Positions 300 to 11,750 of a stretch of 11,750 nucleotides of DNA are shown here, in pieces (the stretch's first letter is position 1; the number at the start of each line of letters is the position of its first letter). Source of the DNA: a virus (lineage: Duplodnaviria > Heunggongvirae > Uroviricota > Caudoviricetes); IMG/VR virus record IMGVR_UViG_2585427760_000003. One strand, given 5' to 3'. The notes beneath the pieces are model-generated. The model was not told where the DNA came from, did not search any database, and worked only from the letters and a program-made list of their open reading frames with translations. Both the position numbers and the translations under genes were made by a program.

Positions 300-693
300 G
301 CGTTTCGCTGGGAAAAAACGTGTATCCGGAGAGGATCATCTGAACGGCATGAAAAATATCATTCTGATCATTGCATTTACTGACAAAACCGTTAGCACCA
401 GCTTGTATCGCTCTGCCAGCATAAAAGCATTCTGATTTCGATGATAAAAATAACACTTTCACTGTGCTCTGGATTTGTTTGATCCTTTTCAGGAAGGTAA
501 AACCGTCTGTTCCGGGCAAGTCTATATCCATAATGATTAAATCAACAGGACGGGTTCGGAGATAATCGATGGTTATGCGGTAATCATCCGTTTTCAGGAC
601 AATCTGCAATTCACTGTTTTTTTGCAACAGAACTTCAATAGACATTCTGATGATAGGATGAGTATCCATAATGATCACCGACGTTGGTTTCAT
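295..693 (-). pseudogene. fimZ: fimZ response regulator (LuxR family), 3'-truncated by the IS1 insertion; encodes receiver domain only and loses the C-terminal HTH
   Basis: Minus-strand translation MKPTSVIIMDTHPIIRMSIEVLLQKNSELQIVLKTDDYRITIDYLRTRPVDLIIMDIDLPGTDGFTFLKRIK...SGYTFFPSET matches E. coli FimZ residues 1-131 from memory; the frame then reads R and a TAA stop (295-297) supplied by the IS1 end instead of native ...LNYIKSN. Upstream in-frame Met at 756 is probably not the start. Confidence 0.85.
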
Positions 694-935
694 AGTTACC
701 AGTCTCATAGGAGCGGACAATTTTCCGTTAGGGCGGTAAATTGTACTTTGATACATGAAAATACGGGTTTTCTTGATTCAGACGCGCAGCGATGTGCATT
801 TGTTTGCCGCTATAGCGAAATAAATCAGAAAATCAGACGCGGTCGTTCACTTGTTCAGCAACCAGATCAAAAGCCATTGACTCAGCAAGGGTTGACCGTA
901 TAATTCACGCGATTACACCGCATTGCGGTATCAAC

Positions 936-1012
936 GCGCCCTTAGCTCAGTTGGATAGAGCAACGACCTTCTAAGTCGTGGGCCGCAGGTTCGAATCCTG
1001 CAGGGCGCGCCA
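936..1012 (+). tRNA. argU: tRNA-Arg (anticodon UCU)
   Basis: 77-nt cloverleaf GCGCCCTTAGCTCAGTTGGATAGAGCAACGACCTTCTAAGTCGTGGGCCGCAGGTTCGAATCCTGCAGGGCGCGCCA; acceptor stem GCGCCCT/AGGGCGC, anticodon loop CTTCTAA with TCT at 970-972, T-loop GTTCGAATC, 3' CCA. Confidence 0.95.
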
Positions 1013-1027
1013 TTACAATTCAATCAG

Positions 1028-2191
1028 TTACGCCTTCTTTATATCCTCCATAATTCCAGAGTGGGACATATTTGGGACATTATCACCAAAAATGTCGTCT
1101 ATTTTCCTCGCATGCTCTGTCAAATGATTAGGCGCAAGGTGAGCATACCTACGAACCATTTCTATGGACTCCCATCCGCCCATTTCCTGAAGCACTGATA
1201 ATGGGACGCCTGACTGAATCAGCCAGCTTGCCCAGGTGTGTCTGAGGTCATGGAAACGGAAATCTTCAATTCCTGCACGACGACAAGCTGATAGCCATGA
1301 TGTCTTGCTGTCGATGCGCATCTTCCTGACCGCAGGCGTTGATGTTCCATCTGCTCGCTTAGCCGCCTTGGTATGTACAAACACCCATTTGTGATGCTTG
1401 CCTATTTGATCACGCAACACTTTACAGGCGGTATCGTTCAGCGCCACACCAATGGCGCGGTTTGATTTGCTCTCTTCTGGATTCACCCAGGCAACTCGTC
1501 GCTGCATGTCGATTTGTTGCCATTCCAGATTTATGATGTTCGACTTTCTCAGACCAGTTGCCAGCGCAAACTTGACGACAGATTTCAGTGGTTCGGGGCA
1601 CTCATCAATAAGGCGTTTTGCTTCCTCCTTTTCCAGCCATCTGACTCGCTTGTTTCTGACCGCTGGTATCTTGATGACAGGCGCTTTTTCCAGCCACTTC
1701 CAGTCGCGTTCTGCAGCACGGAGAATGGCCTTTATCATGGCAAGATGCTTTGCCTTTGTCTGAGTTGATACTGGCTTTGGTTCATAAACAGGCAGTTCTT
1801 TACCTTTCCTGATGGCGGCCTGAACTTTCTGTTTCCATATTTCTTTCGTCTTTCTGTTATGCATTCTGCTTACAGCAGAGTAAATCTTTGCCTCCGAGAT
1901 ATCTTTAAGCCTTATACCCTCAAAATGTTCAAGCCAGAACTCAATCCGGCTTTTATCTGAATCGAGAGATTTTTTATCAGCTTTTTCCTCAAGCCATCTT
2001 AGGCAGGCCTCTTCAAAAGTGACATCAGGTAAATCCCCTAGCTTTTCTACTCGCCAGAGTTCTGCTTTTCGCTTGTCGTGCAACTCCTGAGCTTGCCGCT
2101 TGTCCTTTGTGCCAAGAGATTCCTTAATTCGTTTCCCGCCCGGGAGCGAATACGAGGCATACCATATTTCATTTCTGCGGAAGAGTGACAT
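1028..2191 (-). CDS. intD: Prophage integrase, tyrosine recombinase family (DLP12 IntD-like), 387 aa
   Basis: 387-aa minus-strand ORF immediately adjacent to the tRNA 3' end; C-terminal catalytic region with [11 protein letters not shown] and VRRYAHL (catalytic Tyr) motifs; N-terminus [35 protein letters not shown]. Confidence 0.93.
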
Positions 2192-2418
2192 TTTCTTTCC
2201 TCTGTTATGCCATCACCCGCGCTCACCTGGACAGTATGCAGCGGAGACTGAAGCGCCGCAATGCAGGCTTGCCGTGTTGTGAGGTAAGGAGATTTTGGCT
2301 TGGTTGGATCTTTACGTGTTGCCTGTAGGCGGCCTGTTCGTATCCAGTTGGTGGCGGTTGGTCTGGATATCTTAAGAAACTGACAGGCCTCATCGAGTGT
2401 GAGGCTGTATGATTCCAT
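2047..2418 (-). CDS. Excisionase-like HTH protein (AlpA/Xis family); ORF is unusually long (123 codons) and overlaps the integrase start by 145 nt, so the 3' extension may not be genuine
   Basis: ATG at 2418-2416 preceded by GAGGT SD; N-terminal [31 protein letters not shown] resembles the HTH of AlpA-type excisionases; position directly upstream of int. Confidence 0.6.
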
Positions 2419-2668
2419 GGTTACCTCTGCTTTTTGAACGCATGTCACGTAACTTCTTAATGTGTTCTGCCGTTTCGATCTCTTCTGCTATCCGATCTGC
2501 ATCAGCTTTATTCACAGGTTCAAAGTCATGATTAAAGCGGAACATGCTGGCGATACATGTTCTGCCTTTTCGGATGTAGTGAACTTTGTTGTGGGTAGAA
2601 CGCAGGATTTTGCAGGGAGTGCCGTGGTGGTCGACGTACCAGGTGTTAGGAAAAATGATTCTGAACAT
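2390..2668 (-). CDS. Hypothetical protein, 92 aa (no family recognised)
   Basis: ORF with GAGGTG SD 5 nt upstream of ATG at 2668; codirectional with and between the TraR-like gene and xis; overlaps the xis start by 29 nt. Confidence 0.5.
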   Translation of the reverse strand: MFRIIFPNTWYVDHHGTPCKILRSTHNKVHYIRKGRTCIASMFRFNHDFEPVNKADADRIAEEIETAEHIKKLRDMRSKSRGNHGIIQPHTR

Positions 2669-2715
2669 TTTTACACCTCAGTTGGACGATGTTGAAATTT
2701 GCTGCTTTGAGGCCA

Positions 2716-2934
2716 TCACAGTCCCCATTGTTTGTTCTTAAGTTCGATCTCCTCCTGGCAACTCGCACAAGTCCGACAACCCTGAACAGCCAGGCGTCTT
2801 CGCTCATCTATCGGATCGCCACACTCACAACAATGAGTTGCGGATACAGTCTGGTAGTTCAGACGACGCATTTTTATTGCTGTATTGCGCTGTAATTCTT
2901 CGATTTCTGATGCTGAATCAATGATGTCTGCCAT
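2716..2934 (-). CDS. TraR/DksA-family C4-type zinc-finger protein, 72 aa
   Basis: Translation contains CECGDPIDERRRLAVQGCRTCASCQ, matching the TraR/DksA signature (compare F-plasmid TraR CEACGNPIPEARRKIFPGVTLCVECQ from memory). Confidence 0.75.
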   Translation of the reverse strand: MADIIDSASEIEELQRNTAIKMRRLNYQTVSATHCCECGDPIDERRRLAVQGCRTCASCQEEIELKNKQWGL

Positions 2935-2985
2935 CTTTCATTAATCCCTGAATTGTTGGTTAATACGCTTGAGGGTAAATGCGAA

Positions 2986-3011
2986 TAATAAAAAAGGAGC
3001 CTGTAGCTCCC
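2986..3011 (-). terminator. Candidate rho-independent terminator or attenuator on the minus strand, upstream of the TraR-like gene
   Basis: Minus-strand RNA GGGAGC-UACAG-GCUCCU followed by UUUUUUAUUAUU; short stem (5-6 bp), so weak; lies inside a 29-codon minus-strand ORF (2941-3030). Confidence 0.4.
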
Positions 3012-3161
3012 TGATGATTTTGCTTTTCATGTTCACCGTTCCTTAAAGACGCCGTTCAACATGCCGATCGCCATGCTTAAATGAGTCGGTGTGAATCCCA
3101 TCAGCGTTACCGTTTCGCGGTGCTTCTTTAGTATCTGGCTGAAAGAGGGGGTTATTAAGGC

Positions 3162-3524
3162 GTGAATACCTACAGCATCACATTACCCTGGCCTCCGAGC
3201 AATAATCGCTATTACCGCCATAATCGCGGGCGCACGCACGTCAGCGCAGAGGGGCAGGCATACCGCGATAACGTCGCCCGAATCATTAAAAACGCAATGC
3301 TGGATATCGGCCTGGCTATGCCTGTGAAAATCCGCATTGAGTGCCACATGCCGGATCGCCGTCGCCGTGACCTGGATAATCTGCAAAAAGCCGCTTTTGA
3401 CGCACTCACTAAAGCAGGTTTCTGGCTGGATGATGCTCAGGTCGTTGATTACCGCGTTGTGAAGATGCCTGTTACCAAAGGTGGGAGGCTGGAACTGACC
3501 ATCACCGAAATGGGGAATGAATGA
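3162..3524 (+). CDS. rusA: Holliday-junction resolvase RusA (crossover junction endodeoxyribonuclease), 120 aa, GTG start
   Basis: Translation [120 protein letters not shown] matches E. coli RusA from memory. Confidence 0.93.
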
Positions 3525-3661
3525 TGTTTGAGTTTTATATGGCAGAACTTCTTCGCCACCGCTGGGGGCATCTGCGCTTATATCGTTTCCCCGGTTCTGT
3601 TTTGACCGATTACCGAATACTGAAGAGTTACGCCAAAACCCTGACAGGAGCAGGAGTATGA
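3521..3661 (+). CDS. ylcG: Small nin-region protein YlcG-like, 46 aa
   Basis: ATG overlaps the rusA stop (ATGA); translation [46 protein letters not shown]; below the 60-aa ORF-track cutoff, identified by hand translation and synteny between rusA and quuD. Confidence 0.75.
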
Positions 3662-3746
3662 AGTCAGAGATAACAATCAACTAATACTGTTTTGTTGATT
3701 TTTGCTTGTAATTGGCGTTTTGGTCTGATTTTTGTGGAGTAAGTTG

Positions 3747-4130
3747 ATGCGTGATATTCAGATGGTTCTTGAGCGTTGGGGAGCGTGGGCGGCTAATAAT
3801 CATGAAGATGTGACCTGGTCGTCCATTGCCGCCGGTTTTAAGGGATTAATTCCTTCAAAAGTAAAATCTCGCCCGCAATGTTGTGACGATGACGCGATGA
3901 TCATTTGCGGGTGCATGGCCCGTCTGAAAAAGAACAACAGCGATTTGCACGATTTATTAGTAGATTATTATATAGTCGGTATGACATTCATGTCACTGGC
4001 AGGTAAGCATTGCTGCTCTGATGGTTATATCGGGAAAAGGTTACAAAAGGCTGAGGGCATAATTGAAGGGATGTTAATGGCATTAGATATCCGGTTAGAG
4101 ATGGATATCGTTGTTAATAACTCTAATTAA
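3747..4130 (+). CDS. quuD: Late-gene antiterminator Q homolog (phage-82-type Q, DLP12 QuuD), 127 aa
   Basis: [67 protein letters not shown]...; ATG at 3747 with GGAG SD at 3736-3739; the ORF track starts at an upstream TTG (3732), which I consider less likely. Confidence 0.88.
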
Positions 4131-4150
4131 TACGCCAATTATTTACTAAA

Positions 4151-4181
4151 AGTTATTAAAAATGGGGCGTTGAAGCGCCCC
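4151..4181 (-). terminator. Rho-independent terminator on minus strand (GC-rich hairpin plus U-tract), likely ending the nmpC transcript
   Basis: GGGGCG (4164-4169) / CGCCCC (4176-4181) stem with 6-nt loop; on the minus strand it is followed by AUUUUUAAUAACU. On the plus strand it is followed by an A-run, so it is not a plus-strand terminator. Confidence 0.6.
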
Positions 4182-4318
4182 CAAAAATAAAGGGTAATAT
4201 ATAACAGAAGGTTTGTATAGTTAGAAGCAAGGTTGTGCTTCTAAAGGAAGTGGCTTGAGGGAGCCACTTATATGTTGGGGAGGCAAAGCCTCCCACAACA
4301 TATCTTTTAGTAATCAAA

Positions 4319-5401
4319 TTAGAACTGGTAAACCATACCTACAGCAACGATATCATCGGTAGCAACGCCAGATGCTTTCGTGAAATCGCTCTTATCAATC
4401 AGGTTGATTTTGTAGTCAACAAAAGTGGACATATTTTTGTTGAAGTAATAGGTTGCACCTACATCAACATATTCAACCAGGTCCTGATCACCCCAAACAC
4501 CCAAGTCTTTTCCTTTAGAATGCAGGTAAGCAACGGATGGACGCAGGCCGAAGTCGAACTGATATTGTGCAACAGCTTCGAAGTTTTGTGCTTTGTTGGC
4601 AATATGGTTATTACCAAAAACAGTCATGTTCTGGGTTTCAGAATAGGTGGTGGCCAGATAGATGTTGTTCGCATCATATTTCAGACCAGCTGCCCATACT
4701 TCAGCATTTTGACCAGAAGCATTCAGACCGTTGTTACCGTAGATAACCTGATTATTAGTGCGATCAGATTTAGCATAGGTTGCACCCACGCCGAATCCTT
4801 CATACTCATAAGTAGTTGAGAAACCGAAACCATCGCCATTAGCTTCAGTTACTTCATTTCGGTCATTTTTGCCCTGATACTGAGCTGCAAAGTTCAGGCC
4901 ATCAACCAGACCAAAGAAGTCGTTGTTACGATAAGTTGCAACACCTGTGGTGCGACCAGTCATGAACACATCTGTTTGGGTCCAGGTATCGCCACCGAAT
5001 TCTGGCAGAACGTCAGTCCACGCACCGATGTCGTATGCTACACCGTAGTTACGGCCGTAATCGATTGAGCCGTAGTCACCGAATTTCAGGCCAGCGAAGG
5101 CAAGACGGGTTTTATCTTTGGAGGAACCTTGAGATTCAGCGCGGTTGCCTTTGAATTCATATTCCCACTGACCGAAACCAGTCAGTTGATCGTTGATTTG
5201 GGTTTCACCTTTGAAGCCAAGACGGGCATAAGTAGTATCACCATCATCTGCATCATTAGAGGAGAAGTAGTGCTTAGCATTAACTTTCCCGTACAGATCC
5301 AGCTTGTTACTGTCTTTATTATAAATTTCAGCTGCCTGAGCAGACATCGCCATCAGTACTGATGCAGCTACAGCAGAAATTGCCACTGTTAATTTTTTCA
5401 T
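4319..5401 (-). CDS. nmpC: Outer-membrane general porin NmpC (OmpC/OmpF/PhoE family), apparently intact, 360 aa
   Basis: Signal peptide [23 protein letters not shown] then [16 protein letters not shown]; porin motifs throughout; C-terminal ...VGMVYQF typical of beta-barrel porins; placed on the opposite strand between Q and the lysis genes as in DLP12. Confidence 0.9.
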
Positions 5402-5829
5402 CGTGAGCCCTTTTTTTTGAACTATTATTAAAAAATGATGTCACTGCGCGATAAATATTCATCTAATCAATGTGATTATTTCAAGATGTAAGTTTTGGTT
5501 TCTCGTTTAATTTGTGAAGTAGATCTCTATTTTTATCTGAACTTTTTTCTATCGAATCCTATTCATGGCTCTTGGCTGAATAAAAATAAATCTATTAGCC
5601 AATTTATATTAATGGCTGTTATTTATAAGTGCTCTATAATTTGAAGGTTCAATTTAAATTGGCTAAAAATAACGCTGGAAATTATTTGTTGGTTATTTGT
5701 TGAGATTTTCTTATGTATTTGTAGTGGTGTTTTCAATACTCGGTAGCATTCTCGCAAATATCATTTAGTGGTTTACGTACGTAAAAAATTGGTTATGCTG
5801 TTAAGAGTGGTTACTTCGTTACACAGCTT

Positions 5830-5862
5830 AAACCCGCCGTCGAGCGGGTTTTTCCATTTTTT
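5830..5862 (+). terminator. Rho-independent terminator upstream of essD; candidate tR'-like terminator of a short late-promoter transcript
   Basis: AACCCGC (5831-5837) / GCGGGTT (5844-5850) stem, 6-nt loop, followed by TTTCCATTTTTT; sits ~110 bp upstream of the holin start. Confidence 0.55.
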
Positions 5863-5974
5863 GAGTCTCGATATTAGCTGATAACCCAATACCTGAGTTA
5901 TTCACTGACTCCGAGTCTGTTACGTTTCGTAGTATTCCCTCAATTTACACCCGCTTTGTCTGCGAGGTGGGGTT

Positions 5975-6190
5975 ATGAAATCCATGGATAAGTTAACAAC
6001 GGGTGTCGCCTATGGCACCTCAGCAGGTAGTGCCGGGTACTGGTTTTTACAGCTGCTCGATAAAGTCACGCCCTCACAGTGGGCAGCAATAGGTGTGCTG
6101 GGTAGCCTGGTATTTGGCCTGCTGACGTACCTGACAAACCTTTATTTCAAGATTAAAGAAGATAAGCGCAAGGCTGCGAGAGGTGAATAA
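5975..6190 (+). CDS. essD: Phage-21-type class II holin (pinholin S21 homolog) with dual-start motif, 71 aa
   Basis: [71 protein letters not shown]; two TM segments; Met1 and Met4 (5975 and 5984) give the holin/antiholin dual start; GAGGTGG SD upstream. Confidence 0.9.
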
Positions 6191-6687
6191 TGCCTCCATC
6201 ATTACGAAAAGCTGTTGCTGCTGCTATTGGTGGCGGGGCTATTGCTATAGCATCTGTGTTAATCACTGGCCCAAGTGGTAACGATGGTCTGGAAGGTGTG
6301 AGACATAATCCTTACAAAGACATAGTTGGTGTATGGACTGTATGTTACGGGCATACAGGAAAAGACATCATTCCCGGTAAAACGTATACCGAAGCAGAGT
6401 GCAAAGCCCTCCTGAATAAAGACCTTGCCACTGTCGCCAGACAAATTAACCGGTACATCAAAGTCGATATACCGGAAACAACGCGCGGCGCTCTTTACTC
6501 GTTCGTCTACAACGTGGGTGCTGGCAATTTCAGAACATCGACGCTTCTTCGCAAAATAAACCAGGGTGATATTAAAGGCGCATGTGATCAGCTACGGCGC
6601 TGGACATACGCTGGCGGTAATCAATGGAAAGGACTGATGACTCGCCGTGAGATTGAGCGTGAAGTCTGTTTGTGGGGGAAACAATGA
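6190..6687 (+). CDS. rrrD: SAR endolysin (T4-lysozyme-like muramidase with N-terminal signal-anchor-release domain), 165 aa
   Basis: N-terminal Gly/Ala-rich hydrophobic SAR segment [20 protein letters not shown] followed by lysozyme catalytic region [23 protein letters not shown]; start overlaps the essD stop (TAATG). Confidence 0.9.
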
Positions 6688-7142
6688 GCAGAGTAACCGC
6701 GATTATCTCCGCTCTGGTTATCTGCATCATCGTCTGCCTGTCATTGGCTGTTAATCATTACCGTGATAACGCAATCGCCTACAAAGAGCAGCGCGATAAC
6801 AAGGCCAGTGAACTGGAGAAGGCGAACGCCACCATCGCTGACATGCGGAAGCGTCAACGTGATGTAGCAGAACTCGACGCAAGATACACAAAGGAGCTTG
6901 CTGATGCTAACGCGACTATCGAAAGTCTCCGTGCTGATGTTTCTGCTGGGCGTAAGCGCCTGCAAGTCGCCGCCACCTGTGCAAAGTCAACGACCGGAGC
7001 CAGCGGCATGGGCGATGGAGAAAGCCCAGGACTTACAGCAGATGCTGAACTCAATTATTACCGTCTCCGAAGTGGAATCGACAAGATAACCGCGCAGGTT
7101 AACTACCTGCAGGAATACATCAGGACGCAATGCCTGAAATAA
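6684..7142 (+). CDS. rzpD: Spanin inner-membrane subunit Rz (i-spanin), 152 aa
   Basis: ATG overlaps the rrrD stop (ATGA); N-terminal TM segment [20 protein letters not shown] then coiled-coil-like periplasmic domain; ORF track starts at an upstream GTG (6672). Confidence 0.85.
6904..7089 (+). CDS. rzoD: Spanin outer-membrane lipoprotein subunit Rz1 (o-spanin), embedded in the +1 frame of rzpD, 61 aa
   Basis: AAGGAG SD at 6891-6896, ATG at 6904; lipoprotein signal [20 protein letters not shown] with lipobox Cys, proline-rich mature region [13 protein letters not shown]; fully nested inside rzpD. Confidence 0.75.
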
Positions 7143-7174
7143 TTTTTTTGCAAATCACAAAGTCCATTTAATGA

Positions 7175-7198
7175 GCCTCGCGATGCGGGGCTTTTTTT
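7175..7198 (+). terminator. Rho-independent terminator after the lysis cassette
   Basis: GCCTCGC-GAT-GCGGGGC stem-loop (7 bp including one G-U) followed by TTTTTTT, ~33 bp downstream of the rzpD stop. Confidence 0.65.
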
Positions 7199-7437
7199 AC
7201 ATCTGAATTTCACAGCGCATCTCACGCGCATATTACATCACCCGAGCCTTTCAGAAAGTTGAGCCTGAGAACTGCCGTATATGGTGGCGACCATCTCGGG
7301 GCGGCTTTTCTGTGAGACAGGCTCACTTTCTAAAAGGTAAAGACGCTATGAACCAATTAGAAGAAAAGCTTCAAAGAATGATTTCCTTATACAAGGAAGA
7401 TAACTGCCAAAAAGTTCCTTAAAACATCGCAGAGTTA

Positions 7438-7836
7438 ATGGAATTGGCAAGTGAATTTTCTGGCATGCTTAAGTCGTCAGGTGTTCGGTCAGCGTTCTTT
7501 GTTGAAATGCTGATGCACGGCGGACTTATGGCAACAATGAGACGTGTAATGGAAGACCAGAGAAAAGAACCTCCTCAGGTATACGTTTTGTCATCGAAGA
7601 AAACTGGGCTAACCAAAATTGGGTATTCATCCAACATTCCACAACGCATCAAATCGCTTGGCAACTCTGGACCAGACTGCTTGAAGCTTGAGTGCCTGAT
7701 CCCTGGTGGAAGAGAAACTGAAAACATGCTTCATCGCAAATTTGCCGCAAAGAGAAAGCACGGTGAATGGTTCGCCCTGTCCAAGGATGACATTGAGGGA
7801 TTGAAATCTGTAGCGATTACTTCTGATGGCTATTAA
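7438..7836 (+). CDS. T5orf172 / GIY-YIG-like domain protein, 132 aa (cargo gene at the position occupied by bor in lambda)
   Basis: C-terminal ~85 residues QVYVLSSKKTGLTKIGYSSNIPQRIKSLGNSGPDCLKLECLIPGGRETENMLHRKFAAKRKHGEWFALSKDDIEGL fit the T5orf172 pattern as I recall it (YVL...KIGYT/S...R...EWF); weak SD; an upstream in-frame 24-codon ORF (7348-7422) is separated by a single TAA. Confidence 0.6.
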   Translation: MELASEFSGMLKSSGVRSAFFVEMLMHGGLMATMRRVMEDQRKEPPQVYVLSSKKTGLTKIGYSSNIPQRIKSLGNSGPDCLKLECLIPGGRETENMLHRKFAAKRKHGEWFALSKDDIEGLKSVAITSDGY

Positions 7837-8514
7837 TGCTTGTTTAGAGCAATTTTCATAACAACTCTTCATTACAAAGCCCATCTACTGGTGGGCTTGA
7901 TAATGAAACCGTGATTTACATCCCCACAATCCGGGTATGTAAAAGATAGTTCAGGCGAGAACGGATTTAACTAAATCTGTGCGCCACCAGTTAACGGCAG
8001 TACCACGAAACAACCCAAGCCAGTAAGTGGGGAAATAACACCGGCAGCCACTGAAAGATGAACCTCCTGCCTTATGGCAAAAAAGATTCTTTGTGGTGGC
8101 GGACTGATGGAAAGACATCCTAATTTCAGCCAAACATTGAAGGAGTTGTTATGTCAGCAGAAGGTTTCAATAACCCATCAAAATTCCGGGATGAGTGGGA
8201 TAGCAGCGTAAAGAGTAAGTGATGCCATCACAAAAGCCATTCCCTACAGAGTGGCTTTGATAATGGCTTATACCCTACACGGGATAACTTAACTGATATC
8301 CTTTTTAAAGGATAAAGGTATTCAAGCCTGACACATCATGCGCTGTATCGTCGCCGTATTCCCGTATTAACAGAGACCGTAGCCCGACGGGGAACTCCTT
8401 CTGCGCGAGTGTGCGGGAATAATCAAAAACGATGCACACCGGGGTTACCGGGTACACATATTTCATCATGCCAGCGAGTCCGGTTCTGGCACGGAAGAAA
8501 CCGGACGTTATGAT

Positions 8515-8925
8515 TTAGTGCGGAAATATTTGTGTAGTGTTCTGAATGTTCTCAGTAAAGAGTAATGAATTATCAAAGGTATAGTAATACCTTTTGTTTT
8601 CGTGGATATTTGTAATCCATCTGAAAACCCCTGCTGTAGCAAGATTTTTCCTGTATTCGTAAAATGATAACTCTCCTGATTTGAATCCTTTTAATGTGGT
8701 TTCTATAAGGCATTTATTTTTTGAAAATCTTACATTTACAACCTTACCCTGTCCTTTTATTAAAACCGTATTATCGTTTTCAAGAACAAGATGAATATTC
8801 TCTGTGGCTAAATAGTAAATGTAATGTGAGACATTGTGACGTTTTAGTTCAGAATAAAACCAGTGATAGTTTAAATTATTTCGCACTTTATCGAATATTT
8901 GTTTAAAAATGGCAACCTGAGCCAT
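8515..8925 (-). CDS. Hypothetical AT-rich protein, 136 aa, no signal peptide or TM segment; possibly equivalent to the protein annotated in K-12 DLP12 as YbcV (recollection, unverified)
   Basis: Minus-strand ORF in a visibly AT-rich segment; likely start at the second Met (8925, GGAAGG-like SD 7 nt upstream) giving [31 protein letters not shown]...; Tyr/Asn-rich, soluble-looking. Confidence 0.6.
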
Positions 8926-8982
8926 TGTAGTACCTTCCATGTGATATGAAGGTACCTAGTCTGCACGATTATCTAAATTGCT

Positions 8983-9216
8983 TCAATCTGGTCTGACCTG
9001 CTTTCTGAGCAATTCAGTAATGTCACTCTTTTCTTTGTTTGCTTCAGGCGAAACTCTTTTTTCTGAGCACAGTCTTCGGCGGCAGGCTTCAATGACCCAG
9101 GCTGAGAAATTCCCGGACCCTTTTTGATCAAGAGCGATGTTAATTTGTTCAATCATTTGGTTAGGAAAGCGGATGTTGCGGGTTGTTGTTCTGCGGGTTC
9201 TGTTCTTCGTTGACAT
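8983..9216 (-). CDS. Small putative ribbon-helix-helix (CopG/Arc-like) DNA-binding protein, 77 aa
   Basis: Basic N-terminus MSTKNRTRRTTTRNIRFPNQMIEQINIALDQKGSGNFSAWVIEACRRRL fits a beta-strand/helix/helix RHH layout; codirectional with and 57 bp upstream of the 136-aa gene; ~200 bp from cosN. Confidence 0.5.
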   Translation of the reverse strand: MSTKNRTRRTTTRNIRFPNQMIEQINIALDQKGSGNFSAWVIEACRRRLCSEKRVSPEANKEKSDITELLRKQVRPD

Positions 9217-9359
9217 GAGGTTGTCCCGTATTCAGTGTCGCTGATTTGTATTGTCTGAAGTTGTTTTTACGTTAAGTTGATGCAGATCAATTAATATGAT
9301 ACCTGCGTCATAATTGATTATTTGACGTGGTTTGATGGCGTAGATGCACGTTGTGACAT

Positions 9360-9604
9360 GCAGATGATAATTATTATCATTTTGCGGGTCCTTTCCGGCG
9401 ATCCGACAGGTTACGGGGCGGCGACCTCGCGGGTTTTCGCTATTTATGAAAATTTTCCGGTTTAAGGCGTTTCCGTTCTTCTTCGTCGTAACTTAATGTT
9501 TTTATTTAAAATACCCCCTGAAAAGAAAGGAAACGACAGGTGCTGAAAACGAACTTTTGGGCCTTTGTCGTTTCCTTTCTCTGTTTTTGGCCGTGGAATG
9601 AACA
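9360..9604. other. Lambda-type cos site: cosQ/cosN/cosB, with the cosN 12-nt cohesive-end sequence GGGCGGCGACCT at 9416-9427
   Basis: 9380-9600 is near-identical to my recollection of the lambda genome left end and preceding right end (..GTTACG GGGCGGCGACCT CGCGGGTTTTCGCTATTTATGAAAATTTTCCGGTTTAAGGCG...); inverted Nu1-binding R-site-like repeats AGAAAGGAAACGACAG / CTGTCGTTTCCTTTCT at ~9523-9580. Confidence 0.85.
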
Positions 9605-10429
9605 ATGGAAGTCAACAAAAAGCAGCTGGCTGACATTTTCGGTGCGAGTATCCGTACCATTCAGAACTGGCAGGAACAGGGAATGCCCGTTCTGCGAGGC
9701 GGTGGCAAGGGTAATGAGGTGCTTTATGACTCTGCCGCCGTTATAAGATGGTATGCCGAAAGGGATGCTGAAATTGAGAACGAAAAGCTGCGCCGGGAAG
9801 TTGAAGAACTGCGGCAGGCCAGCGAGACAGATCTCCAGCCAGGGACTATTGAGTACGAACGCCATCGACTTACGCGTGCGCAGGCCGACGCACAGGAGCT
9901 GAAAAATGCCAGAGACTCCGCTGAAGTGGTGGAAACCGCATTCTGTACTTTCGTGCTGTCGCGGATCGCAGGTGAAATTGCCAGTATTCTCGACGGGATC
10001 CCCCTGTCGGTGCAGCGGCGTTTCCCGAACGGCACGGTCGATGTGTTCCGCGGCTGGGTCAGCAGTATCGGTAAGGCGGTGACGGCGAAGGAAGTGATTA
10101 CCCGCACGGTGAAAGTCACCAACGTAGGACGTCCGTCGATGGCAGAAGATCGCAGCACGGTAACAGCGGCAACCGGCATGACCGTGACGCCTGCCAGCAC
10201 CTCGGTGGTGAAAGGGCAGAGCACGACGCTGACCGTGGCATTCCAGCCGGAAGGCGCAACCGACAAGAGCTTCCGTGCGGTGTCTGCGGATAAAACAAAA
10301 GCCACCGTGTCGGTCAGTGGTATGACCATCACCGTGAAAGGTGTTGCTGCAGGCAAGGTCAACATTCCGGTCGTATCCGGTAATGGTGAGTTTGCTGCGG
10401 TTGCAGAAATCAACGTCACCGCCAGTTAA
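9605..10429 (+). CDS. nohD: Chimeric ORF: terminase small subunit Nu1 homolog (residues ~1-140) fused in frame to the C-terminal Ig-like (Big_2) domain of major tail protein V; 274 aa
   Basis: [46 protein letters not shown]...[14 protein letters not shown] matches lambda Nu1; from ...[60 protein letters not shown]... to ...AEINVTAS matches the lambda gpV C-terminus from memory; switch at ~10018-10027 within shared CGTTTCCCG. The nohD symbol applies to the Nu1-like part only. Confidence 0.85.
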
Positions 10430-10444
10430 TCCGGAGAGTCAGCG

Positions 10445-10795
10445 ATGTTCCTGAAAACCGAATCATTTGAACATAACGGTGTGACCGTCACGCTTTCTGA
10501 ACTGTCAGCCCTGCAGCGTATTGAGCATCTCGCCCTGATGAAACGACAGGCAGAACAGGCGGAGTCAGACAGCAACCGGAAGTTTACTGTGGAAGACGCC
10601 ATCAGAACCGGCGCTTTTGTGGTGGCGATGTCCCTGTGGCATAACCATCCGCAGAAGACAAAGCTGCCTTCTATGAATGAATTGGTGCTCATACGCACTC
10701 CGTTGCGATTGGTTCACATGGACACACCATCACCGTTAACGCTGCTGGTAACGCGGAAAACACCGTCAAAAACATCGCATTTAACTATATTGTGA
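10445..10795 (+). pseudogene. Tail assembly chaperone G remnant (first ~79 codons) joined out of frame to the 3' end of a side tail fiber (stf) gene
   Basis: MFLKTESFEHNGVTVTLSELSALQRIEHLALMKRQAEQAESDSNRKFTVEDAIRTGAF..WHNHPQKT..PSMNE matches lambda gpG; from ~10681 a different frame reads [41 protein letters not shown] (stop 10804-10806), the His-x-His-rich C-terminus of Stf-type tail fibers. Confidence 0.8.
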
Positions 10796-10805
10796 GGCTT
10801 GCATA

Positions 10806-11390
10806 ATGGCATTCAGAATGAGTGAACAACCACGGACCATAAAAATTTATAATCTGCTGGCCGGAACTAATGAATTTATTGGTGAAGGTGATGCATATAT
10901 TCCGCCTCATACAGGTCTGCCAGCAAACAGTACCGATATTGCACCGCCAGATATTCCTGCTGGCTTTGTGGCTGTTTTCAACAGTGATGAGGCATCGTGG
11001 CATCTCGTTGAAGACCATCGGGGTAAAACGGTTTATGACGTAGCGTCAGGGGACGCGTTATTTATTTCTGAACTCGGTCCGTTACCGGAAAATGTTACCT
11101 GGTTATCGCCGGAAGGGGAGTTTCAGAAGTGGAACGGCACAGCCTGGGTGAAAGATGCAGAAGCAGAAAAACTGTTCCGGATCCGGGAGGCGGAAGAAAC
11201 AAAAAACAGCCTGATGCAGGTAGCCAGTGAGCATATTGCGCCACTTCAGGATGCTGTAGATCTGGAAATCGCAACGGAGGAAGAAACCTCATTGCTGGAA
11301 GCCTGGAAAAAGTATCGGGTGTTGCTGAACCGTGTTGATACATCAACTGCACCTGATATTGAGTGGCCTACGAACCCTGTCAGGGAGTAA
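10806..11390 (+). CDS. tfaD: Tail fiber assembly protein Tfa, 194 aa, intact
   Basis: [79 protein letters not shown]... is near-identical to lambda Tfa with scattered substitutions; ATG overlaps the stf-frame stop (TAATG). The tfaD symbol is by synteny with DLP12. Confidence 0.85.
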
Positions 11391-11444
11391 TCATTGGGAT
11401 TATGCCGCAGCACGTCTTAAGCAAGAACGTGCTGCGGTTGGATG

Positions 11445-11750
11445 CTATTTTTTCCCTGAAGCGGAAAACATTACTACAGTACCTTGAACCTTGGTTTTAA
11501 CATTCTCGAAATGCTCTGAGAGTATATGTGTTAAGCCTTCTTCGGAATCTTTTGTGTTTGAAAAGATGCCTTTCTGATTGTAAATGCGCATCAGTTTTTG
11601 ACCGAAGCTATTGTGCACAACTCCATCGCCAAGAATTGTGGCTCCGTATAGAGTTCCATCGTCAGTTAAGGCCTGCGCCGCATTGCGTATTACACAGCTT
11701 TTTGTAGATATATTTCCAGGCAGGCAGTGAAGAAGGTAAAACATGGAAAT
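11445..11750 (-). CDS. Hypothetical protein, C-terminal portion (5' end probably beyond the window edge)
   Basis: Minus-strand ORF open to the window edge (two further in-frame codons upstream of the ATG at 11744); no family recognised; position corresponds to the gene convergent with tfa in lambdoid prophages. Confidence 0.4.
   Translation of the reverse strand: MSMFYLLHCLPGNISTKSCVIRNAAQALTDDGTLYGATILGDGVVHNSFGQKLMRIYNQKGIFSNTKDSEEGLTHILSEHFENVKTKVQGTVVMFSASGKK

Follow-up and report, generated by a model that had tools for sequence, protein, structure and literature searches.

The DNA considered here, called the window throughout, is a stretch of 11,750 nucleotides (nt) from IMG/VR virus record IMGVR_UViG_2585427760_000003, and it is a DLP12-type prophage sitting at a tRNA-Arg gene. 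Between its integrase gene and the resolvase gene rusA, the minus strand carries a small open reading frame (ORF) of 29 codons, MKSKIIRELQAPFLLFAFTLKRINQQFRD (2941..3030, -; 31 codons from an alternative GTG at 3036), which encloses a hairpin resembling an intrinsic terminator together with its U-rich tail (2984..3012, -). Comparison with related phages leads us to conclude that this hairpin and U-tract are a selected RNA element, most simply a putative intrinsic terminator. Most probably it is an ancestral, ORF-embedded terminator of the phage pL operon, which has been left as a relic in a prophage remnant. The element is already known, since it is the predicted terminator t2 of phage lambda, where its neighbour is orf73; what the window presents is ordinary prophage decay beside an element already in lambda and already predicted, and no new regulatory device. 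Three points are new as judged from the alignments: the homology of the small ORF to the ~25 codons at the C-terminal end of orf61-family proteins; a hairpin and U-tract whose codon positions agree between diverged lineages and which compensatory changes maintain; and a pattern of substitution that shows purifying selection on the peptide. The comparative evidence for an orf61-derived small ORF with a covarying hairpin is a modest refinement, and of modest value for lambda biology.

Conservation of the hairpin and U-tract

The terminator scan places the hairpin at 3012-2994 (-), as AGGGAGCTACAGGCTCCTT followed by TTTTATTATT, with eight pairs including wobbles, four of them G-C, and a loop of 3. 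The core, GGAGC/GCTCC, occupies 3010-2996, and the tail extends to 2984 as six U residues (2995-2990) followed by AUUAUU; the hairpin falls within codons 7-12 of the small ORF. The structure thus has the properties of an intrinsic terminator, namely a G+C-rich stem-loop (~5-10 bp), a U-tract directly 3′ of it, and conservation of the structure through compensatory change. It was rejected as a bidirectional terminator, the T-run on the plus strand lying 8 nt away from the stem.

Terminator-like sites number four in the window against 2.2 ± 1.7 in shuffled sequences, so that the count alone does not exceed chance; the hairpin is judged real because it is conserved and covaries in relatives, and not because of site counts. 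A 66-nt segment containing it folds at -14.4 kcal/mol (z = -2.66), and codon-aligned 52-nt segments of the lambda-type variants give RNAfold energies of -8.6 to -10.2 kcal/mol, one singleton variant excepted. The hairpin is retained in a 204-nt context, in both the minimum free energy (MFE) and the centroid structure (overall z -0.73), and neither of these folds contains a competing antiterminator helix. No Rfam family was found at the element, either at gathering thresholds over the whole window or in an E-value scan of 2300-3300.

Phage lambda (J02459) possesses an identical 31-aa ORF at 30620-30715 and an identical hairpin at 30691-30673, located between orf61 and an unannotated 73-aa ORF. 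At the DNA level the small ORFs of the window and lambda differ by two synonymous changes, and the GTG found just upstream in the window is ATG in lambda. Peptide and hairpin are also identical in phi24B and P21, in which N and cI are present; the ORF is annotated as CPT_21_39 in P21 and as SfI_0032 in SfI. The stretch 2660-3135 matches 192 phage records, 179 of which cover at least 80% of it, and these matches include phi24B, 933W-like Stx phages, VT2-Sakai, P21, SfI and HK630. Because it is identical in intact lambda and widespread among phage records, the element predates the deletion described below; it is an ordinary ancestral relic that has come to lie beside rusA, and not a new control device. 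A pattern in which only deleted prophages have the element was not seen, intact relatives possessing it as well.

A terminator "t2" (-8.3 kcal/mol) separating orf61 from orf73 in both lambda and phi24B was predicted by Bloch et al. (2014; PMC4195576), and it is this hairpin. The window has the same sequence, AAAATCATCAGGGAGCT ACA GGCTCCTTTTTTATTATT, again with orf61 upstream and orf73 downstream; it differs in that the upstream context is cut 100 nt away by the deletion, and that pL and N are absent. The published work makes no mention of a conserved small ORF around the hairpin or of covariation. The same study found by quantitative reverse-transcription PCR (qRT-PCR) that the orf73, ea22 and ea8.5 transcripts of lambda are below those of the upstream genes (PMC4195576).

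More distant relatives were found in Citrobacter and related genomes and on 41 IMG/VR contigs, where a 74-aa protein (for example MKRMTTEQENALRATARKCSDELKAELAKKPKPKFDAVSRPLLAKHFEKIKGLGVPFLLFVYTIGRINGQFREH) precedes TraR-like or other small genes. The last part of the small ORF resembles these proteins, the motif PFLLF..T..RIN.QFR being common to both (alignment A1). The lambda-type hairpin codons are AG[G GAG C]TA CAG [GCT CC]T TTT TTA TTA TTC, and at the same positions the 74-aa type has AA[G GGA C]TT GGC [GTC CC]T TTT TTA TTA TTC. Comparison of the arms, GGAGC/GCTCC versus GGGAC/GTCCC, reveals substitutions of both partners in two of the five core pairs, one from A-U to G-C and the other from G-C to A-U, at the cost of amino acid changes (E/G and A/V). 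A third type, from Citrobacter sp. NCU1, has AGGTCGC-TACA-GCGGCCT followed by TTTTT, with the register shifted by one.

Across 44 distinct codon-aligned sequences, 89.9% of the cells are paired, versus 37-70% when the partner is slid by one to three columns, and double-change cells number 31 versus 10.2 ± 5.3 in shuffles. The core stem is essentially invariant across 228 lambda-type copies. Within the 74-aa clade the third codon positions in the stem show, with two exceptions, only wobble-compatible changes (GGA to GGG, GTC to GTT), while those of the loop are free to vary. In hairpin-bearing clades Pro is always CCT, Phe always TTT, and Leu TTA, TTG or CTT but never CTG; in four clades that have no hairpin (L125, L130, L287 and L288) the U-run is gone as well.

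Origin of the small ORF and of the prophage remnant

The small ORF has a Shine-Dalgarno sequence (AAGGAA) 8 nt upstream of its ATG and stops 6 nt before the ATG of orf73. A Pfam search with the peptide found no family. The 74-aa protein aligns over its full length with the lambda-type Orf61 (MTPQQENALRSIARQANSEIKK...GMLNGVFKER), and its final ~25 residues fit the small ORF more closely than the C-terminus of Orf61 does (alignment A1). Short versions are found standing alone as well: a homologue of 32 codons in Citrobacter sp. NCU1, which follows a DNA methylase gene with an ATGA stop/start overlap, and one of 39 codons in Pseudocitrobacter faecalis. Furthermore, in lambda-type phages with a different upstream gene (L014, L039, L053, L078 and L087) the homology starts ~25 nt before the small-ORF ATG, and this start is a mosaic joint. 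On account of the 74-aa alignment, the standalone versions and the mosaic joint, the small ORF is judged to be a copy, now detached, of the 3′ end of an orf61-family allele. It lacks the N-terminal two thirds of the family and is a fragment-sized relative rather than a full member. It is chained to its neighbours by adjacent or overlapping stop and start codons, to orf61 upstream through GTGA or ATGA and to orf73 downstream through TAA-6 nt-ATG.

With regard to orf61 itself, the annotated lambda gene (61 aa) and an unannotated 60-aa ORF (3213-3525 on our lambda locus L003, lambda 30712-31024) together correspond to the single 71-93-aa Orf61 of P21 and phi24B. The lambda gene looks frameshifted, in agreement with the remark that it is "truncated" (PMC8614690).

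Between the lambda-type and Citrobacter copies of the small ORF the proportion of synonymous differences (pS) is 0.45 and that of nonsynonymous differences (pN) 0.18; the 13 codons that follow the U-tract give 0.73 and 0.14, respectively. One Arg is conserved as CGT in one lineage and as AGA in the other. The 228 lambda-type copies (24 variants) segregate for 11 synonymous and 12-14 nonsynonymous changes, where 19% synonymous would be expected (binomial p ~0.004), and the frame is intact in 227 of the 228. As far as such counts can be read, this pattern shows purifying selection on the peptide, and the small ORF appears to have stayed translated. Ribosome profiling of lambda is reported to have revealed an extra translated ORF of 31 aa ("orf2313") in the conserved block (reviewed in PMC8614690). 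On the minus strand of lambda 29000-31400 the small ORF is the sole 31-codon ORF outside exo, and it is probably orf2313. Lambda possesses, between orf61 and orf73, an unannotated ORF of 29 or 31 codons that is a conserved relative of the orf61 C-terminus and apparently under selection.

The prophage resembles DLP12 of E. coli K-12 and the intact phage 2G7b (LR595866) in its attachment site, argU, in intD, and in its right arm, rusA-ylcG-quuD-porin-essD-rrrD. It differs from both in a lineage-specific deletion. BLAST aligns window 1000-3133 with positions 651-2784 of the 2G7b locus at 99.9% identity, and window 3132-6953 with positions 14534-18370 at 92.7% identity; relative to 2G7b, 11,749 bp are absent from the window. 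In 2G7b the missing interval holds two small exo-xis ORFs and the 5′ part of orf61, together with exo, bet, gam, kil and ea10; an antirestriction gene, sieB, N, cI, cro and cII; and O, P, ren, ninB, a methylase gene and ninX. A preliminary description of this DNA, made from the sequence alone, had stated that repressor, operators, N and the O/P-type replication genes are absent, and this is borne out by the comparison. It had also correctly located the ORFs, the terminator-like hairpin and U-run inside the 29-codon ORF (recovered independently by the scan), and the gap of ~230 bp to rusA (227 bp), and its minus-strand order of small ORF, TraR-like gene, 92-aa gene, xis and int is real.

The BLAST break points and the 2G7b annotation put the deletion junction at 3132..3133, with a 2-nt overlap. 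To its left lies a 3′ remnant of an orf61-family gene (3033..3133, -; ~33 codons and a stop), identified by alignment with orf61 of lambda, phi24B and P21 and labelled by RefSeq/PGAP as a "ZapA, missing N-terminus" pseudogene. To its right are the last ~30 nt of ybcO (DUF1364), kept together with the ribosome-binding site of rusA (3132..3165, +; 5095-5128 in the coordinates of our locus L002). An illegitimate deletion of ~11.7 kb at a 2-nt microhomology has thus brought the 3′ third of orf61 up against the final 30 nt of ybcO, before rusA. What survives on the minus strand is the distal end of the ancestral pL operon, consisting of the truncated orf61, the small ORF, orf73, the DUF4222 gene, xis and int. 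The same junction is found in one piece in three of 5426 complete E. coli genomes (14EC033, 100416 and CUWW06) and also on one IMG/VR locus (L079). E. coli LR-64-1 is a less deleted relative, with 1,160 bp more than the window.

Proposed role of the element and competing explanations

In lambda, N-modified RNA polymerase reads through intrinsic terminators, and int and xis are expressed either from pL with N or from pI with cII. Because N-modified polymerase ignores such terminators, t2 would act on unmodified transcription. In an intact phage, RNA polymerase lacking the N modification would partly terminate at the hairpin, N-modified transcription from pL would pass through it, and a ribosome going from orf61 into the small ORF may weaken the hairpin further. 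In the remnant, from which pL, N, cII and the 5′ end of orf61 have been lost, both of these routes to int and xis expression are gone, and nothing upstream would drive transcription or translation across the element. The hairpin could then only halt stray antisense transcription from the rusA/quuD side, and orf73, the DUF4222 gene, xis and int would be silent or low, or dependent on weak internal promoters such as the doubtful p1 discussed below.

One possible source of stray transcription reaching the hairpin is a near-consensus sigma-70-like site (GTGACA-18-TATAAT, 11/12 matches) at 3996-3967 (-), antisense inside quuD, which overlaps an inverted repeat (TGACAT..ATGTCA). The scan found no minus-strand terminator-like site between it and the hairpin at 3012-2994. 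By analogy with lambda paQ, this site could give an anti-Q RNA. Lambda-type boxA/boxB (nut) sequences had only chance-level matches in the window, a search that did not include non-lambda boxB types.

Several considerations weigh against an ancestral terminator. The literature support for t2 consists of a prediction and qRT-PCR, and in phi24B orf73 and ea22 are well expressed despite the hairpin (PMC4195576). Part of the hairpin signal comes free with the coding sequence, because when the peptides are recoded at random with synonymous codons, 7-24% of trials in three of four lineages (~1% in the fourth) still produce a terminator-like motif. The covariation reflects very few independent events (the lambda type, the 74-aa type and the L122/L127 type). 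The stem is short, with five core pairs and about -8 to -10 kcal/mol, and termination may be weak. Finally, the equation of the small ORF with orf2313 is indirect, being made through the review and the uniqueness of its 31 codons.

The alternative that survives best, although we consider it unlikely, is a translation-coupled attenuator, in which ribosomes that pass from orf61 to the ~30-codon ORF would, if close behind RNA polymerase, melt the hairpin or keep it from forming; the genes from orf73 to xis and int would be gated by the tightness of this coupling between translation and transcription, in addition to N antitermination. The device would be ancestral to the phages, lambda included, and not an adaptation of the remnant; the small ORF would have been kept for gating after its detachment. 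Consistent with this, in each of four diverged lineages the hairpin is invariably enclosed by a reading frame (the 74-aa gene and ORFs of 29/31, 32 and 39 codons); stop/start overlaps or short gaps connect orf61, the small ORF and the next gene; the selection on the peptide implies that the small ORF has been translated; and a 31-aa ORF has been reported as translated in lambda (PMC8614690). However, the 18 nt upstream of the hairpin are A-rich (AUGAAAAGCAAAAUCAUC) and contain no U-rich pause sites, and there are neither regulatory codons nor an alternative structure in the 204-nt fold. N antitermination suffices for read-through in intact phages, and a terminator near the 3′ end of a gene is an equally simple reading. 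In the window, moreover, orf61 has lost its start, and a ribosome could come only from de novo initiation 18 nt ahead of the stem, probably too slowly. For lambda this raises the question of gating of the distal pL operon (orf73, ea22, xis, int) by a terminator that is sensitive to translation.

A second alternative, which strikes us as rather improbable, is that an internal promoter drives orf73 and the genes downstream, with a start downstream of the hairpin, the latter being incidental or insulating. The candidate is the weak promoter "p1" (2985..3017, -), a BPROM prediction which overlaps the hairpin and has the same sequence in lambda and phi24B; its hexamers are TCATCA at 3017-3012 (-35) and TTTTATTAT at 2993-2985 (-10) (PMC4195576, Table 3). 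In phi24B the transcripts of orf73 and ea22 are more abundant than those of the genes upstream, above all after H2O2 treatment, as such a promoter would predict; in lambda, with an identical sequence, the downstream transcripts are lower (PMC4195576). The hexamers are poor, with 3/6 and 4/6 matches by eye and an 18-nt spacer, and were not picked up by the sigma-70 scan of the window. In addition, the supposed -10 is the terminator's own U-tract.

It is slightly more improbable that the hairpin is a by-product of coding, or an element of RNA stability or processing with no role in termination, and the small ORF a decaying fragment. The peptide alone does yield the motif in the synonymous resamplings mentioned above, related clades exist without the hairpin (the four already named, together with L289 and L293), and the number of terminator-like sites in the window is at chance level. 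Set against this are the double changes, which alter amino acids yet preserve pairing; the co-occurrence or joint absence of hairpin and U-run; the codon bias of the hairpin-bearing clades (CCT, TTT, never CTG); and the excess of synonymous changes in a frame that is almost always intact. An ancestral intrinsic terminator accounts for these features most simply.

The preliminary description had proposed that the leader ORF is an attenuation or antitermination control point governing int and xis in a prophage from which N and cI have gone, and this is hardly credible: its anatomy is as described, with a short ORF enclosing a hairpin and U-run directly before the first intact minus-strand gene, but the element is not a response to the loss of N and cI, because it is identical in lambda, which like phi24B and P21 retains both; the scan found no minus-strand promoter-like site in 3031-3161, a stretch made up of the orf61 3′ remnant joined to the ybcO 3′ end; there is no antiterminator alternative in the 204-nt fold, no run of regulatory codons and no nut site; and with the deletion variant in only three of 5426 genomes there has been little time for adaptation.

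Neighbouring genes and comparison with known systems

The gene that follows the small ORF (2716..2934, -) encodes a 72-aa protein of the TraR/DksA family (PF01258, 37.3 bits against a cutoff of 24.9; phrog_54) with 87% identity to lambda Orf73. Like lambda Orf73 and F-plasmid TraR, it possesses an N-terminal DxxDxA motif (MADIIDSA: D3, D6, A8) and a C4 zinc finger, and on these grounds it is assigned as a secondary-channel regulator of RNA polymerase, orthologous to lambda orf73. Lambda Orf73, a homologue of TraR, binds RNA polymerase in competition with DksA and inhibits rrnB P1; it slows host growth and raises phage yield (Gourse laboratory, PMC9239242). Both small proteins had been described as of unknown role, which still holds for the 92-aa DUF4222 protein but not for this one. 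The window allele differs from that of lambda in being followed by DUF4222 and a P22-type xis rather than by ea22 and ea8.5.

Searching genome contigs with the TraR protein yielded mostly lambda contamination in unrelated taxa and only seven usefully divergent loci. Contigs labelled Shewanella, Pseudomonas, Bradyrhizobium, Streptomyces, Paenibacillus and others (L090-L121) carry an orf73 that is 84-87% identical to the query, like that of lambda, and several are ~48.4-48.5 kb in length; they are lambda DNA contamination of public assemblies.

The DUF4222 gene (2390..2668, -; 92 aa; E 1.9e-19; phrog_285) directly follows orf73 in all 80 loci having the window's orf73 allele, and a P22-type xis comes next in 68 of them. 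P21 has a DUF4222 gene before its own xis, and DUF4222 homologues were found only in Enterobacterales prophages. The excisionase gene, xis (2050..2418, -; 123 codons), is of the P22/SfI type, full length and with an HTH_17 Pfam match. The overlap with int is 142 nt long and that with the DUF4222 gene 29 nt. Its product shares 81% identity with SfI Xis over 116 aligned residues; xis occurs as a 100% identical copy in phage ev243 and is covered to at least 80% by 161 phage records. In RefSeq/PGAP this region contains only a 66-nt "helix-turn-helix, missing C-terminus" pseudogene, a call which looks wrong, xis being probably intact. The lesson for annotation is that the "ZapA" pseudogene is an orf61 remnant and the "xis" pseudogene probably an intact xis.

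The tRNA-Arg gene (936-1009) adjoins the integrase gene (1028-2191, -), an ORF for a tyrosine integrase of 387 aa, the identical protein being annotated as intD by PGAP. From this tRNA the prophage gene order is intD ... rusA, ylcG, quuD, porin, essD, rrrD. The Holliday-junction resolvase gene rusA (3162-3524, +; GTG start; 120 aa; RusA Pfam E 6.9e-23) is the first gene left of the rightward arm, 227 bp from the start of the TraR-like gene. A weak plus-strand promoter-like site (TTAATA-18-AATAAT, 9/12 matches) lies inside the small ORF at 2960-2989, in lambda as well as in the window, and came to be ~170 bp upstream of rusA once the deletion had occurred. E. coli 14EC033 matches the entire window at 100% in two pieces, including the 1.5 kb from 2200 to 3700, and E. 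coli 100416 matches it at 100% over 300-11750.

At the left end (1-756) an IS1 fragment, comprising the InsB C-terminus (ORF 19-264) and ending at ~290, truncates fimZ, of which only 295-756 is left; fimZ is intact in E. coli 14EC033. An Rfam IS009 RNA (RF02111, 229.5 bits) is found at 11149-11347 (+), near the right end. The porin gene of the prophage (4319-5401, -; nmpC/ompD type, 360 aa) is intact, with a strong terminator-like hairpin after it at 4181-4164; in E. coli LR-64-1 the gene is interrupted by an ISVsa5 element.

Among known control systems, the trp and his leader-peptide attenuators share with the element a short ORF and a terminator ahead of structural genes. They differ in that the hairpin here is inside the small ORF, in codons 7-12, and not after it, and that no antiterminator alternative is present; the 29-codon ORF contains no run of a single amino acid and no regulatory codons. 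Classical attenuation of this kind was rejected on these grounds. The pyrBI and pyrE attenuators of E. coli, whose terminator is masked by a ribosome that follows closely, likewise have a hairpin in or just after a translated ORF, with upstream translation linked by stop/start proximity, and an ORF spans the hairpin in the window as in the four diverged lineages. The small-ORF element differs in possessing no U-rich pause sites in the 18 nt before the hairpin and no known metabolic signal, and the resemblance is one of layout only.

Further counterparts are the N-suppressible intrinsic terminators of the lambda pL operon (tL1, the tL2 cluster and tL3). The hairpin was rejected as the classical tL3, which is a different hairpin inside orf60a (lambda ~31265-31287) and which we take to be the "t1" of Bloch et al. 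Like these terminators, predicted t2 is a hairpin with a U-tract on the pL transcript, in the exo-xis/b region, and N-modified polymerase would be expected to read through it too; it differs from them in its shorter stem and in being embedded in what appears to be a translated frame.

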